Shown here one piece after another: positions 698-12,947 of a DNA stretch of 14,479 nt; positions within the stretch are counted from its first letter, which is position 1, and each line of letters begins with the position of its first letter. The position numbers were made by a program, and so were the translations under genes. The stretch is taken from UHGV virus genome UHGV-0177056. One strand, 5' to 3'. The notes under the pieces are model-generated. The model searched no databases. It had not been told where the DNA came from and worked only from the letters and a program-made list of their open reading frames with translations. The DNA is from a virus.

Positions 698-879
698 TTT
701 TTCTTTCCTCTATAACTTATTGATTTTAATTACAAAAACCATATAAAGACCAAAAGCAAAAAGAAAATACAAAGAAAGGGCTATTTTTGCTTTACATGAG
801 CTATATATGGATCAATACTTATATCCGAAGGGATAACACGGCGGTGTTATCCGCACGGATAACTTTTAAGGGTAACCTA
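698..879. promoter_or_regulatory. Divergent early regulatory region between repressor and ner (putative operators and promoters)
   Basis: 182-bp AT-rich intergenic region between divergent genes. Contains an A-tract (aaaagcaaaaagaaaatacaaagaaa), a TTTACA -35-like hexamer at 791-796, an IHF-like site ATCAATACTTAT around 811-822, and clustered GGATAAC half-sites at 822-863. Confidence 0.5.
822..863. promoter_or_regulatory. Cluster of GGATAAC inverted and direct half-sites (candidate repressor/Ner operator)
   Basis: Perfect inverted repeat GGATAACAC-GGCG-GTGTTATCC at 831-852, a further GGATAAC at 857-863, and TATCC-GAAG-GGATA at 822-835, all immediately upstream of the ner start. Confidence 0.5.
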
Positions 880-1116
880 ATGATGGTTAGAAATGAAGTA
901 ATGAACAAAGACTGGCACCGCGAGTACATCGTTGCCGCTGTGCACACCAAAGGTTTTACATTGCGTGAACTTTCTGAACGCGCTGGTCTAAAAAAAGACT
1001 CTTTAAAAAATGCACTGTATCGCTCATGCCCTAAATATGAACGCATCATAGCCGATGCTATTGGTGTGGAACCTGCGGAGATCTGGCCAAGCCGGTATGC
1101 CAGTAAGGCGGCGTAA
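880..1116 (+). CDS. ner: Ner-like DNA-binding regulator
   Basis: Translation from ATG 880 (MMVRNEVMNKDWHREYIVAAVHTKGF...EIWPSRYASKAA) matches the Mu Ner / Nlp pattern (DWHR...GLKK...LSNAL...IIA.A....P..IWPSRY). The track ORF starts at 787, but that start would lie across the operator repeats; 880 has an AAGGG RBS-like sequence about 8 nt upstream. Confidence 0.8.
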   Translation: MMVRNEVMNKDWHREYIVAAVHTKGFTLRELSERAGLKKDSLKNALYRSCPKYERIIADAIGVEPAEIWPSRYASKAA

Positions 1117-3158
1117 TGTTTTATTCAGCCAATGAGCTGGCCGGTCTTCCTGGTTTGCCCGGTACAGTTCAGGGGGTGCGCTGGACGCTCAATCGGATCA
1201 CAGAGACGCACCCGGAATGGAAGCGCAAGCGTGAAGGCACCAAAGCATTCGAGTATCACATCGACTGCCTGCCCGCTGAAGCGCAGAAAGTTTTACGTAA
1301 GCGCCTGACCCATCAGGTCCTGGAAGATACGCAACTGCCCGCCGTGGTTGAGCAGAAGGCAGTTAAAAACGTCGCCGTTCGCGATGAACTGGAGGTGATG
1401 GTCAAATGCCCGGAACTGGCATTACGCGAAGTCCAGGCACTGACTGACAAGCAAAAGGCCATCGCTGATGCGCGGATATTGCTGGCTACTGAAGTGCATA
1501 AACTGCGTGAATACGCCGGAATGACAAGGAAGGCCGCGTTAAAGCACATCGTTGATGGTGTGCGCATGGGGGCGTTACCTGACCGCATTATCGAAGCAGC
1601 TAATACTGCAAATGCACGTCAGGGAAAGCGAACCGGTGTCAGCACAGGCAGCCTGGATAGTTGGTACTCCAGCTGGGTGATGGCGCGCGGTGATGCCAAT
1701 CAGTTACTGGCGTTACTGGCTCCCGGTCATCATAAGGGAACACCGTGGGAGCAGGTCTGGTGGTTGAGCGATTTCTTTATGTTCTATCGCTCATGGAAGC
1801 GCCCGACCGTTGAATATGCGTATCGCGAGTTTTCAGCCTGGTGGCATGAAAAACACGCGAACGATGCGGGAATGCTGGCGGCACTGCCTTCAGTTCACGC
1901 AGTAAGACGGGTGTTAAGCAGCGTCCCGGTGATTGTTAAAGAGCGTTTCCGCTCCACAGGTTCAGCCTGGCGTTCGCTCAATCCCTTTGTGCGGCGCGAG
2001 TGGACATCATTACCGGTTAATGCGGTATGGGTCGGGGATGGTCACTGTATGAAAATGACCGCGTTTAACCCCCTGACCGGCAATATTTTCCGGCCAGAAG
2101 TGACGCTGGTTATGGATGCAGGACAACGCTTTATTGTGGGCTGGTCACTGTCCCTGTCGGAGAACGTGATAGCCGTTGCTGATGCGTTACGTTACGGCAT
2201 GGCACAGCACGGGATACCGCTGATTTATTACTCCGATAACGGGGGCGGCGAAAAAAACCTGGTGCTTGATGCCGATATTACCGGGATTCTGCCCCGTCTG
2301 GGTGTGGAACATCACACGGGGATACCAGGTAACCCGCAGGGGCGCGGGGTGATTGAAAGGGTTAACAAGGAAATACCCAAAGACGTGGCCCTGAGTTTCC
2401 AAACGTACTGCGCAAGGGATGCAGACAAGGAAACCGTAATGATGCAGCAACGGATTATGCAGTCAGCCATTAAGGCCACCCACAAAGGGAAAGAGCTGAC
2501 AAAACGGCAGGTTAAGGCGAGGGATGAAATCCCTACCTTTGAGCAACTGATGGCAGCCATAGAGCTGGAGGTCAGACGCTATAACAACCGGCCACACAGC
2601 AGCCTTCCTCGCAAAGAGGATGGCGAGCATTACAGCCCGGCAGCGTATCGCCGGAAACTGATAAAAGAGCAGAATGTTGAAATTGATTTCCTGTCGCCGG
2701 AAGAACTGCATGAAATGTTCAGGCCGGAAGTGACGCGCAAAACATTTCGCGGGGAAATTCAGTTATTCAACAATATTTATTACTCATATGATCTGGCCGC
2801 AGAGCACGGGAATGAAGTCAGGGTCAGTTACGATATTCATGATGCAAACAGCGTCATTGTCCGGCGGGCTGATGGCTCTTATATCTGCGATGCCATCTGG
2901 AACGGTAACAAGGTTGATGCCTTCGCTAAACCAGTTATCGAACAAAAACTGGAGAAACGCGTCAAGGGCCGCATTGCACGGGCCACGCAGAAAATCGAAG
3001 AGGCTAAACGCGAGCTTACCCCGGCCATTACGCAGAAGCCTGACTTTAATCTGGGATATGGACTGGAACGCCTGGAGAAAAAGGAAAAAGAAGAACTTTA
3101 TTTATTCGCATCTGAACGCGAACGCAATTTAAAGAAAAACGGCACAAACAACCGTTAA
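1116..3158 (+). CDS. Mu-type transposase (MuA-like DDE transposase)
   Basis: 680-aa ORF directly after ner with TAATG stop/start overlap. N-terminus (ELAGLPGLPGT..GVRW) resembles the MuA DNA-binding domain; size and position match MuA. Acidic residues in VWVGDGH, YYSDNGG and GVIERVNKE are consistent with a DDE core. Confidence 0.85.
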   Translation: MFYSANELAGLPGLPGTVQGVRWTLNRITETHPEWKRKREGTKAFEYHIDCLPAEAQKVLRKRLTHQVLEDTQLPAVVEQKAVKNVAVRDELEVMVKCPELALREVQALTDKQKAIADARILLATEVHKLREYAGMTRKAALKHIVDGVRMGALPDRIIEAANTANARQGKRTGVSTGSLDSWYSSWVMARGDANQLLALLAPGHHKGTPWEQVWWLSDFFMFYRSWKRPTVEYAYREFSAWWHEKHANDAGMLAALPSVHAVRRVLSSVPVIVKERFRSTGSAWRSLNPFVRREWTSLPVNAVWVGDGHCMKMTAFNPLTGNIFRPEVTLVMDAGQRFIVGWSLSLSENVIAVADALRYGMAQHGIPLIYYSDNGGGEKNLVLDADITGILPRLGVEHHTGIPGNPQGRGVIERVNKEIPKDVALSFQTYCARDADKETVMMQQRIMQSAIKATHKGKELTKRQVKARDEIPTFEQLMAAIELEVRRYNNRPHSSLPRKEDGEHYSPAAYRRKLIKEQNVEIDFLSPEELHEMFRPEVTRKTFRGEIQLFNNIYYSYDLAAEHGNEVRVSYDIHDANSVIVRRADGSYICDAIWNGNKVDAFAKPVIEQKLEKRVKGRIARATQKIEEAKRELTPAITQKPDFNLGYGLERLEKKEKEELYLFASERERNLKKNGTNNR

Positions 3159-3176: not shown

Positions 3177-4070
3177 ATGAGTTTAATTACGCAATTAAAT
3201 GACGTAATGGCCCGTCGCGGCTATACGCAAACCCACGTCGCCCGTGCTATTGGTCGTAGCAGCGCCGTTATCAACCAGTATTTACAGGGTAAATATCAGG
3301 GCGATATGGCTGATATTGAAGAACGCATTTCTGCCTTTGTGACCCGTGAGCGGGAAAAGGAAAACAGCCGCCGTATTAAAGCGAAATTTGTTGCCACCGG
3401 TATGGCTGCCAAAGGACTGGAGGTGTTGGCCTATGCTCACCTGGAATGTGAAATCTGCGTACTGTATGGCGCGGCAGGTCTTGGCAAAACAATGATTCTG
3501 CGTGAATACGCCGCCAGAAACCGGGATGCGGTCCTGATTGAAGCCGACCCGGGCTATACAGCCAGAACACTGCTTGAGGAGCTGTGCCGCCAGCTGGGGG
3601 TAAAAGTTCGCGGCAATATCCACGAACTGATTGATGCATGTGTGCGAGAACTGCGTGATTCCGGTCGCCTGCTGATGGTGGACGAGGCTGAACTGCTCCC
3701 CTATCGCGCACTGGAGGTTCTGCGCCGTCTGCATGACAAAGCGGGTATCGGGATTGTCCTGGCGGGTATGCCACGCCTTCTGATTAACCTCAAGGGACGT
3801 CGCGGTGAGTTCGCCCAGTTATACAGCCGTGTGGCGCTGGCGCTTAACCTGGGCGATACGCTGTCGCAGGAAGATTTTAACCAGATAGCTACCGGGCTGA
3901 TGCCGGAAGCAGCAGAACCGGAAATCAGCGAGGCGCTCTACGCACGCTCACTGGGTAATGCCCGCCGCCTGTTCAAACTGGCTCGCGGTGTGTACCGGAT
4001 TTGTGATATCAGCGATGCACCGGTCAGTGTGCAGGCCATTGATAAATTCGCAGAAATGTTAATTCACTGA
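3177..4070 (+). CDS. MuB-like transposition ATPase (AAA+ target-DNA activator)
   Basis: 297-aa ORF after the transposase. N-terminal HTH-like segment, Walker A GAAGLGKT, Walker B LLMVDEAE. Position and length match Mu B. Confidence 0.85.
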   Translation: MSLITQLNDVMARRGYTQTHVARAIGRSSAVINQYLQGKYQGDMADIEERISAFVTREREKENSRRIKAKFVATGMAAKGLEVLAYAHLECEICVLYGAAGLGKTMILREYAARNRDAVLIEADPGYTARTLLEELCRQLGVKVRGNIHELIDACVRELRDSGRLLMVDEAELLPYRALEVLRRLHDKAGIGIVLAGMPRLLINLKGRRGEFAQLYSRVALALNLGDTLSQEDFNQIATGLMPEAAEPEISEALYARSLGNARRLFKLARGVYRICDISDAPVSVQAIDKFAEMLIH

Positions 4071-11102: not shown

Positions 11103-12297
11103 CGAAGACAAAATCAGCCTGGTCATTGCCGGAAGGTCGCATTCTGACTGGAACAGTTATCGTATTGACAGCGATTTCCTGAAAGCTGCCGACGGCTGGC
11201 AGCTTCAGCTGGGGCTGCCTGAAAAGGTGTTCCCGGCGGATATCGTCCGGGGCGCACAAATCCGGTTGCAGGTGGGAGACGAAACGGTGCTCAGTGGGCG
11301 CATAGACAGCGTGCGCCGCAGTGTATCCCGTCAGAGCTGCACGCTGACCCTGTCCGGGCGTGATGATGCCGCCATCCTGGTGGACTGTGCCGCGCCAGTG
11401 TTCAGCGCCAACCAGCTGACGCTGGACGAGGTCATCGACAGGATTGTCAGACCGCTGGGGATACAGCGCATCCGTATTCAGGCGTCCGGTGTGTCACGTA
11501 ATGACAAAGTCGTTATTGAGCCGGGGATGCGTGCGTGGGATGCACTGGCCAAAGCTGCCGCCGGTCGCGGCTTATGGCCGTGGTTTGAGCCTGACGGGAC
11601 GCTGGTTGTGGGTGGCCCTGACTACACCACCACGCCGGTGGATACGCTGATTCTGAAGCTGAACGGCACCGGGAACAACGTGATGGAGCTGGACGATACC
11701 CGGTCCATTAACGGCTGTTTCTCCGAACTTACTGTGCTGGCCCAGAGCCACGCCCGCCGCGCAGACAGCAAGAAACAGGTGGCCGTGGTGCCGCTGGATA
11801 TCTGGAACGAGGACGGCAGCGTGCGCACATTGTCCGGGCAGGACAGCGGTAATACGGACAGTGGCCAGACAGGCATTCATAACATGAAAGCCGTTGCCAC
11901 CGACCCCACCGTGGATTATTACCGCCCGCAGATAATCACCCAGGGCGACACCAGCAATCTGGAGCAGGTGAACTGGCGCGCAAAAAAAATGATGAGTGAT
12001 GCCCGCCTGTCGGGGCTGGATATCGTCGCGCTGGTTGCAGGTCATCGCACGGCAGATGGTGTTCTGTGGCAGCCCGGCCAGCGGGTGCGGATTGTCAGCG
12101 AACTCCACGGCATTGATGCCATCTTTTTCCTGATGGGGCGTGAGTTCAGCGGAGGCCGAAACGGGCAGACAACCCGGCTCCGCTTTAAAGAGGACGGCGT
12201 GTGGATACCTGATGCCTTCCCGCGCGAGAAGAAACGCCATCACCGCAGGGGCAAAAAGAAAAAAGAGGTCGCCATTGTTAAGGTCTGGGAGAAATGA
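11086..12297 (+). CDS. Late control gene D-like tail protein (Mu gp44/P-like baseplate hub)
   Basis: 403-aa ORF; size, position after the tape measure and X-like protein, and overall pattern fit the gpD/gp44 family. Unusual Lys/Arg/His-rich C-terminal tail. Confidence 0.8.
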   Translation: MPTQNNEDKISLVIAGRSHSDWNSYRIDSDFLKAADGWQLQLGLPEKVFPADIVRGAQIRLQVGDETVLSGRIDSVRRSVSRQSCTLTLSGRDDAAILVDCAAPVFSANQLTLDEVIDRIVRPLGIQRIRIQASGVSRNDKVVIEPGMRAWDALAKAAAGRGLWPWFEPDGTLVVGGPDYTTTPVDTLILKLNGTGNNVMELDDTRSINGCFSELTVLAQSHARRADSKKQVAVVPLDIWNEDGSVRTLSGQDSGNTDSGQTGIHNMKAVATDPTVDYYRPQIITQGDTSNLEQVNWRAKKMMSDARLSGLDIVALVAGHRTADGVLWQPGQRVRIVSELHGIDAIFFLMGREFSGGRNGQTTRLRFKEDGVWIPDAFPREKKRHHRRGKKKKEVAIVKVWEK

Positions 12298-12947
12298 TGT
12301 GGGACAAAGTTAATCAGCGCGTACAGCAGGCACTGGCCGCCGTTCGCCAGGCATTCAGGGTGGTGACCGGTACGGTGGACAGTTCGACCAAAGTACAGCT
12401 GCTTCAGCTTAACGGGCTGGCAGGCGAACAGCTGGACGGTGCGGAGTATTTTCAGCATTACGGCCTCACCACATCCCCGCCGCCCGGCTCAATGGGTATT
12501 GCCGTTCCGCTGAACGGCAATACCTCTCATACTGTCGTGGTGGCCACAGAGCACGGCGCATATCGTCTGACGGAACTGAAACCCGGGGAAGTGGCCCTGT
12601 ATACCGATGAAGGCGCGAAAATCGTACTGAAGCGCGGACGGGTTATTGAAACCGAATGTGACGTTTATCGCGTGAAATGCAAACGCTACGAGGTTGAGGC
12701 AGAGGAGAACGCCACATTCACGACACCGTTACTGACAGCCAGTGACAGGCTGACGGTGGAAGGCAAAATCACCGGCAACGGTGGCATGGCCATCAGTGGG
12801 GGCAAGGGATACACTGCCACCTTTGAAGGCGATATCAACCATGTGGGTGGAGTGATTACCTCCGTTGACGTCACCATTAATGGCGTTAAAATCGGAACGC
12901 ACAAACATCCAACCCCACACGGCATGTCTGACACGCCGGTTAATTAA
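12294..12947 (+). CDS. Baseplate assembly protein V-like (Mu gp45-like spike)
   Basis: 217-aa ORF with ATGA overlap to the upstream gene. N-terminal OB-fold-like region and a Gly-rich beta-rich C-terminus (GKITGNGGMAISGG...INHVGGVITSVDVTINGVKIGTHKH) typical of gpV spike proteins. Confidence 0.8.
   Translation: MMWDKVNQRVQQALAAVRQAFRVVTGTVDSSTKVQLLQLNGLAGEQLDGAEYFQHYGLTTSPPPGSMGIAVPLNGNTSHTVVVATEHGAYRLTELKPGEVALYTDEGAKIVLKRGRVIETECDVYRVKCKRYEVEAEENATFTTPLLTASDRLTVEGKITGNGGMAISGGKGYTATFEGDINHVGGVITSVDVTINGVKIGTHKHPTPHGMSDTPVN

Follow-up and report, generated by a model that had tools for sequence, protein, structure and literature searches.

A GGATAAC half-site array just upstream of ner in a Mu-like prophage: a probable operator for the phage's own Ner protein

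When a repressor gene and a ner gene diverge from a common control region, a symmetric array of half-sites between them raises the question of which protein reads it. The window analysed here, a stretch of 14,479 nucleotides from the viral genome UHGV-0177056, carries such an array at 822-863, and the first-pass annotation offered it as a binding array for the repressor and/or the Ner-like protein. The comparisons described below suggest that the array serves as an operator for Ner, the Cro-like regulator of Mu-type phages, with the repressor most likely acting elsewhere. A probability of roughly 0.7 is assigned to this reading, which is drawn from sequence comparison.

The locus and the composition of the array

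The window is about 99% identical to the Mu-like prophage of 35.7 kb that is inserted in eutC of the EPEC strain E2348/69. The lineage also occurs more widely, with members in Escherichia and Edwardsiella, among Yersinia phages, and in Sodalis symbionts. Because the last half-site of the array reads AGATAAC in E2348/69 rather than GGATAAC (1144-1161 of locus L202, compared with 846-863 here), the window comes from a close relative and is not the E2348/69 prophage itself. The later parts of the window are apparently unlike E2348/69 in gene content.

The early region has the layout of a Mu-type phage as judged by Pfam domains. A repressor gene on the minus strand (50-697) diverges from ner on the plus strand (880-1116), which encodes a 78-aa Ner/HTH_35 protein (HTH_35, E 9e-26), and ner is followed by a MuA-type transposase gene (1116-3158; Mu-transpos_C, rve and the Mu DNA-binding domain PF02316) and by a gene for a MuB-like ATPase (3177-4070; AAA_22). 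The array is thus flanked by divergent repressor and ner genes, as had been proposed. The description of the repressor as CI-type rather than Mu c type also holds, given that its N-terminal domain is the CI-type HTH of PF07022 and that PF02316, the N-terminal domain of Mu c and MuA, is absent from the repressor but present in the MuA-type transposase. A structure search found no solved homologue for the repressor. In Mu, the PF02316 domain is common to transposase and repressor. Since the transposase here keeps PF02316 and the repressor has PF07022 instead, the two proteins may not compete for shared operator/enhancer sites in the Mu manner, or such competition may be rewired in this phage.

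The array reads TATCC-GAAG-GGATAACAC-GGCG-GTGTTATCC-GCAC-GGATAAC, and as a whole is a 40-bp nested palindrome centred on 841.5. Its core, at 831-852, is the perfect 9+4+9 palindrome GGATAACAC-GGCG-GTGTTATCC that had been noticed around GGCG. Both a repeat search and a motif scan recover the left arm on the plus strand (site 2, GGATAACAC, 831-839) and the right arm on the minus strand (site 3, GTGTTATCC, 844-852), separated by the spacer GGCG (840-843), which holds the dyad axis. On the right, GGATAAC on the plus strand (site 4, 857-863) forms GTTATCCG-CA-CGGATAAC with site 3, and the repeat search reports GTTATCCG/CGGATAAC as a perfect inverted pair at 846-853 and 856-863. On the left, TATCC on the minus strand (site 1, 822-826; GGATA in reverse) forms the outer arm of an inverted repeat with 18-nt arms (822-839 and 844-861, 83% complementary). 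The same search also gives a 16-nt direct repeat at 822-837 and 848-863, with a spacing of 26 bp. The 9+4+9 palindrome and its 18-nt-arm extension supply the dyad-symmetric half-sites, of about 9-12 bp, by which a site of this kind is recognised.

Four GGATAAC-type half-sites had been counted in the array. Three are exact copies, at 831-837 (+), 846-852 (-) and 857-863 (+), but the fourth, site 1, is only partial, in that TATATCC matches GTTATCC at 5/7 positions. Site 1 overlaps the inferred start point of the early promoter, Pe. A one-mismatch scan adds a degenerate unit, GGGTAAC (6/7), at 870-876 on the plus strand, which is in 13-bp phase with 831, 844 and 857 and overlaps the ribosome-binding site of ner. 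Relatives have GGATAAA, GGATAGC or GGGTAAT at this position, and it is possible that the unit is a fifth Ner site or that it merely has the likeness of a Shine-Dalgarno sequence.

The clustering is not what chance would give. The window holds seven copies of GGATAAC where 1.3 are expected, and three copies inside 40 bp were found in 0 of 2000 dinucleotide-preserving shuffles. The four copies outside the array (5082, 9269, 10822 and 13300) are all single and intragenic and were rejected as sites for want of a partner half-site. The lone palindrome was dropped as evidence of significance: 36% of the shuffles hold a perfect palindrome with 9-bp arms somewhere in 14.5 kb, which makes the palindrome weak evidence when taken alone and leaves the weight to the cluster statistic and to conservation. 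Only one more perfect palindrome in the window has arms of 9 bp or longer: TATTGCCGTTC-CGCT-GAACGGCAATA, with 11-bp arms, at 12497-12522 inside the ORF at 12294-12947.

The exact dyad GATAAC-N8-GTTATC has the array as its sole instance in the 35.7-kb E2348/69 prophage. It had been suggested that the same half-site be sought near the left end of the prophage; that end, which is outside the window (2247-2550 of locus L001, from E2348/69), gave one 6/7 match, TTTATCC, at about 2445-2453, and the GGATAAC array is absent from 2250-2400. This left end has, in the same interval and beside the eutC junction, three repeats of the type TTCTGGGCG(G/C)(A/T)TT, which are probably the L1-L3 transposase-binding sites.

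A scan of viral contigs with the pattern GATAACAC-N4-GTGTTATC returned 15 matches, a number that may be within chance for 16 specified bases. Ten belong to this ner family and five are unrelated and lack ner, so the palindrome is not exclusive to Ner phages. A 197-kb viral contig of an unrelated large phage has the pattern twice (L157, 788-807; L164, 3738-3757), each time about 30-40 bp upstream of a gene start, with similar flanks and with no ner homologue nearby; these copies probably belong to a repeated regulatory element that another protein reads. Two other identities for the array were discarded. The window sequence TGTTATCCGC at 845-854 is the reverse complement of GCGGATAACA in lacO1, but the spacing and orientation are wrong for a lac operator and the TGTGAGC half is missing. 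An intrinsic terminator or attenuator was set aside as well, given that no terminator was detected and that the TTTT after site 4 is not conserved.

The position of the array was fixed relative to Pe, which is predicted at 791-819 on the plus strand (TTTACA-17-AATACT) as the sole sigma-70-like site in 600-1000. The sequence GATCAATACT is conserved across nearly all relatives, and the -35 region varies with repressor type. Transcription would start near 826. The array begins 3 bp past the -10 element and stops 17 bp before the ner start codon (880), such that it would occupy about +1 to +38 of the early transcript, on the predicted promoter and its inferred start. The first-pass annotation placed it at the early operator, between the divergent genes; it is not between the promoters and lies downstream of the predicted Pe. 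Given that promoter prediction, the array falls between the Pe -10 element or start point and the ner ribosome-binding site, where the Ner operators of D108 and Mu also are found.

Conservation of the half-sites among related loci

Ner-based and repressor-profile scans of viral and genome collections gave 35 loci of the same layout, with several repressor types (A, B, C and D) and several Ner types. Comparison with these related Mu-like prophages confirms that a conserved, dyad-symmetric array of the protein-binding type is present in the early control region and that its form follows the Ner type. Ner type 1, which is found in this window, in Edwardsiella hoshinae and in Sodalis, goes with GGATAACAC-N4-GTGTTATCC. 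Type 2, the group of Yersinia phage vB_YpM_5, has AGATTATCC-GGCG-GTGTTATCC-GCRC-AGATAAC, and type 3 has three direct GGATAAC/GGATTAT units with a period of 13 bp. Type 4 has AAATTTGATAACTAA-GT-TTAGTTATCAAATTT, in which the GATAAC-N8-GTTATC spacing is retained, together with a Mu-box-like TAACTAAGT. One further locus, L187, has the direct repeats GGACTTAC/GGCTTAG/GGATTAG and is without any GGATAAC.

Within the type-1 clade, 2 of 18 positions vary in the arms versus 9 of 12 in the spacers (Fisher p=0.0012), and the outer sites 1 and 4 vary as much as the spacers do. Site 2 is invariant among type-1 relatives except for a symmetric change of G to C or A at the outermost base in Sodalis, and the TTATC of site 3 is unchanged in 10/10 aligned relatives; the other Ner types have GGATTATCC or a direct GGATAAC at the position of site 3. 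The central spacer, in relatives that keep both arms, is GGCG, GCAG, CGCC, ATCC or CAGC, that is, five different spacers between identical arms. Constraint on site 4 is weaker than on sites 2 and 3, with AGATAAC in E2348/69 and the Yersinia-phage group, GGATAAT in strain 54214 and GGTTAAT in locus L032. Site 1 is kept as TATCC, TATCT or TACCC in the Escherichia, Edwardsiella and Yersinia relatives and is missing in Sodalis. Where the arms do change, the dyad is preserved: the Sodalis change affects the outermost base of both arms, and paired changes in Edwardsiella anguillarum restore symmetry. Conserved arms beside variable spacers and outer sites mark the central palindrome as the constrained core and the flanking half-sites as auxiliary. 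In this comparison of sequences, the pattern is that of purifying selection on the half-sites and not on the spacers.

The orientation of the half-sites differs between Ner types, and the 13-bp register is retained. A reading that builds on this register, and that we regard as doubtful, is that Ner would bind as independent monomers to GGATAAC units held in a fixed 13-bp register (831/844/857/870), with evolution flipping the orientation of the units. The palindrome found here, the self-symmetric intermediate GGATTATCC of some relatives and the three direct repeats of others could then, just as tentatively, be forms of one such array. The last unit of the register overlaps the Shine-Dalgarno sequence of ner, and the array might repress both transcription and translation. 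If true, the operator would differ in architecture from those of Mu, D108, Cro and EnrR, whose dyads are fixed.

A palindrome at the 5' end of a transcript may also act as RNA, through a stem-loop that stabilises the early mRNA or modulates translation of ner without any protein operator. For RNA from 820-882 the computed fold, at -24.9 kcal/mol (z -4.98), is a single nested hairpin that takes in all four half-sites, and among relatives the stems are kept, the loops vary and compensatory changes occur, although this pattern equally fits a dyad-symmetric DNA site. The relatives with direct repeats, however, have no hairpin: the three direct GGATAAC units of the type-3 Ner group cannot pair (z -1.7), and the same is true of the direct repeats of L187. 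The Yersinia group disrupts the central stem, and the region belongs to no Rfam family, with no match near the gathering score. The GGATAAC unit is kept in either orientation, which points to a protein site. An RNA element in place of an operator is therefore improbable, and a dual DNA/RNA role in this particular phage is possible.

Natural swaps of the repressor module and the left intergenic half

Exchanges among the related prophages separate the two candidate regulators. Across the variants found in E. coli, one Ner (WP_000989761.1) and one array occur beside four repressor proteins; even in variants whose repressor N-terminus is 46% identical and whose left intergenic DNA is diverged, ner and the array are identical. 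Between the window and strain CFS3292, which has a type-B repressor, identity is 100% at 1-290 and at 808-1300 but 52-74% at 300-807. The swapped module consists of the N-terminal DNA-binding domain of the repressor, about 130 aa, and of the left intergenic DNA including the Pe -35 element, and its boundary at about 807/808 falls just left of the Pe -10 element and the array. Being identical across repressor types A and B, and outside the swapped module, the array does not behave as an immunity operator.

A Dam site, GATC, lies close to this boundary, at 810-813 within GGATCAATACT, and abuts the predicted Pe -10 element (814-819). Of the 35 related loci nearly all keep it, including those in which the DNA around it has been swapped. 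The transposase promoters of IS10 and Tn5 are under Dam control; the site here may recall that control, or it may be just a conserved recombination linker between modules.

Co-variation across the 35 loci gives the same partition. In Mantel comparisons, the array correlates with Ner at r 0.78 (partial 0.73 given repressor) and with the repressor at r 0.44 (partial 0.13 given Ner), while the left region correlates with the repressor at r 0.77 (partial 0.75 given Ner) and with Ner at r 0.30 (partial -0.11 given repressor). A single repressor HTH, the D type DWGLSFSTLNNYL[TS]RGTEPSL, goes with four arrays, each accompanied by its own Ner type: AGATTATCC-GGCG-GTGTTATCC, the three direct GGATAAC units, AAATTTGATAACTAA-GT-TTAGTTATCAAATTT, and the GGACTTAC/GGCTTAG/GGATTAG repeats. 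The reciprocal case, a repressor at least 75% identical with a Ner at most 65% identical, was not found among the loci; the best available pairs have repressors that are 60-68% identical overall with HTH segments that are near-identical. Locus L078 from Phytobacter was rejected as a reciprocal swap, as its repressor belongs to another family.

The array thus follows Ner independently of the repressor type, subject to its linkage with ner and to an imperfect fit in L188. The distance from the array to ner is 17 bp, compared with 125 bp to the repressor gene, and its co-inheritance with ner could partly reflect this linkage. In L188, Ner is only 40% identical and the array is still TATCC/TTATCC/GGATAAC-like. 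The Sodalis Ner has several changes in the recognition helix with the palindrome kept, and the Yersinia group has few such changes with the left arm of the array altered, so that co-variation of Ner and array is not clean residue by residue.

These exchanges bear on the proposal that the CI-type lysogeny repressor binds the array, by itself or with Ner, as a roadblock downstream of Pe in the lysogen. The array does lie in the intergenic region between repressor and ner, all repressor types share an STLNNY recognition-helix core, which on sequence alone would allow a shared repressor site, most arrays share a GATAAC-like core, and in Mu the third repressor operator, O3, is near the Ner site. 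Nevertheless, the swap of immunity type at 300-807 ends just left of the array, the partial correlation of array and repressor is 0.13, one HTH type goes with four arrays, including that of L187 without GGATAAC, and the repeats that do track the repressor sit in the left region, with one copy inside the Pe spacer. Such a role for the repressor is very improbable; of the two binders originally named, Ner is retained and the repressor is probably not one.

The left intergenic half (698-810), which diverges together with the repressor N-terminus, is the likely seat of the repressor operators and of the repressor promoter, Pc. It contains the repeat pair CCATATAAAG (739-748) and CTATATATGG (801-810), the second copy of which lies inside the Pe spacer, and the pair AAAGCAAAAA (753-762) and TTTTTGCTTT (784-793). 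Counterpart repeats in other types change with the repressor, and these nested, type-specific repeats are most likely the repressor operators. A candidate Pc -10 element, TAAAAT, is on the minus strand at 728-723, which would put the Pc start near 716 on that strand, and appears in relatives as TATAAT-CAAT; with Pc at this position, Pc and Pe are back-to-back and the array is outside the segment between them. In addition, a motif CTTTCTTT/AAAGAAAG is kept in all left regions, with a ACAAAGAAAG-type copy upstream of Pe in every repressor type (769-778 in the window). It resembles the CTTTT-type site of the Mu repressor and MuA, and is a candidate site for the N-terminal domain of the MuA-type transposase, that is, for an enhancer.

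Binding of the array by another protein, either the MuA-like PF02316 domain at a transposition enhancer or a host protein such as DnaA, is highly improbable. An enhancer must be somewhere, given that the transposase keeps PF02316 and the repressor is without it, and the transposase gene A is co-inherited with ner; but the Mu enhancer coincides with O1-O2 upstream of Pe and not with the Ner site, so that the position of the array speaks against such a role and the shared left-region motif is the better candidate. As to DnaA, TTATCC is the core of the DnaA box, and TTATCCGCA at 848-856 fits a relaxed form of it. Of the array, only this segment fits the 9-mer TTATCCACA, which includes a 3' ACA, and there the 3' triplet varies among relatives (GCA, GCG, GTC or CTT) while the conserved extension is the 5' GTG of GTGTTATCC. 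A host-factor site is further disfavoured in that the array differs between phages infecting the same hosts.

Comparison with known Ner systems and the proposed early switch

The Ner protein encoded here shares 41% identity with Mu Ner and 47% with D108 Ner. Among solved structures in the PDB, its nearest homologue is EnrR (7F9H, E 6e-17), and Mu Ner matches as well (1NEQ, E 9e-13).

The D108 operator offers the nearest parallel in placement and geometry. It is a perfect dyad, CCGTGAGCTAC-N8-GTAGCTCACGG (11-N8-11), that sits after the Pe -10 element and ahead of the ribosome-binding site of ner. From its centre to the ner ATG is 40 bp, compared with 38.5 bp here, and the inner ends of the arms are 8 bp apart in both, as GCTAC-N8-GTAGC in D108 and GATAAC-N8-GTTATC in this phage. 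The half-sites themselves are unrelated in sequence, CCGTGAGCTAC versus GGATAAC. Unlike D108, this phage also conserves AC/GT inside the N8 segment, which results in 9-bp arms and a 4-bp spacer, and it has extra outer half-sites and a PF07022 repressor rather than one of Mu c type. Binding of Ner to the operator has been demonstrated for D108, whereas the array described here is known from sequence comparison.

Mu has AGCTAGCTAAGT-N6-ACTTAGTTAAAT at 1029-1058, flanked by two features that GenBank annotates as belonging to the Ner binding region; the Ner site comprises two 12-bp ANYTARCTAAGT boxes with a 6-bp spacer. Mu and this phage both have inverted repeats downstream of Pe and before ner, with presumed negative regulation of early transcription, and the TTGATAACTAAGT of one related group of phages (L190) agrees with the Mu box at 10/12 positions. 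The core spacing, however, is not the same. Mu Ner represses the promoter of the repressor gene as well; in this phage the predicted Pc and Pe stand back-to-back, with Pc about 100 bp to the left, and the array is not in the segment between them, so that no effect of Ner on Pc or on repressor transcription is evident.

Structures of EnrR (7F9H/7F9I) place two monomers on palindromic DNA with the HTH in the major groove, and the authors suggest that Mu Ner binds in this way too; the affinity of EnrR falls as the spacer becomes longer (PMC9023278). EnrR, from Edwardsiella piscicida, is a nucleoid-associated anti-H-NS factor that prefers the AT-rich AATAAATNATTTATT with adjacent half-sites, whereas the array here contains G+C and is more widely spaced. 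In an alignment, the DNA-contacting residues R40 and R47 of EnrR are E and D in the Ner of this phage.

The arrangement also resembles that of lambda Cro and CI, given that a small HTH lytic regulator is divergent from a repressor and symmetric sites are found at the early promoter. However, lambdoid Cro and CI read the same operators, and their genes and operators swap together. Here, the repressor domain swaps together with the DNA beside it and leaves ner and the array unchanged, which suggests separate sites for Ner and repressor, as in Mu.

In short, Ner is the probable binder of the array. The operator core would be GGATAACAC-N4-GTGTTATCC (GATAAC-N8-GTTATC), with weaker outer half-sites on its flanks. 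Upon induction or infection, Pe would transcribe ner-A-B, and accumulating Ner would bind the symmetric half-sites as monomers or pairs, much as EnrR does on palindromic DNA. Ner bound across about +1 to +38 would block initiation at Pe or escape from it, such that the early (transposase) operon and ner itself would be down-regulated, the latter by negative autoregulation. The lysogeny repressor would act on the type-specific repeats of the left half (about 739-810), which overlap the Pe -35 element and spacer.

No published description of this operator was found in the literature searched, and the array is an uncharacterised new member of the known class of Ner operators. It leaves the current understanding of phage regulation unchanged. 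What it provides is a concrete operator, open to testing, for the Ner-type regulator in a lineage of Mu-like prophages, one member of which is carried by the EPEC reference strain E2348/69. The early switch of these phages consists of two independently exchangeable modules, the repressor domain with the left DNA and the array with ner, and the Mu logic of separate sites for Ner and repressor would be retained despite a repressor of a different family that has no DNA-binding domain in common with the transposase. The natural variants of Ner and its array could also be used as a small atlas of binding specificity for HTH_35, a poorly characterised family that includes Ner, Nlp/SfsB and EnrR.
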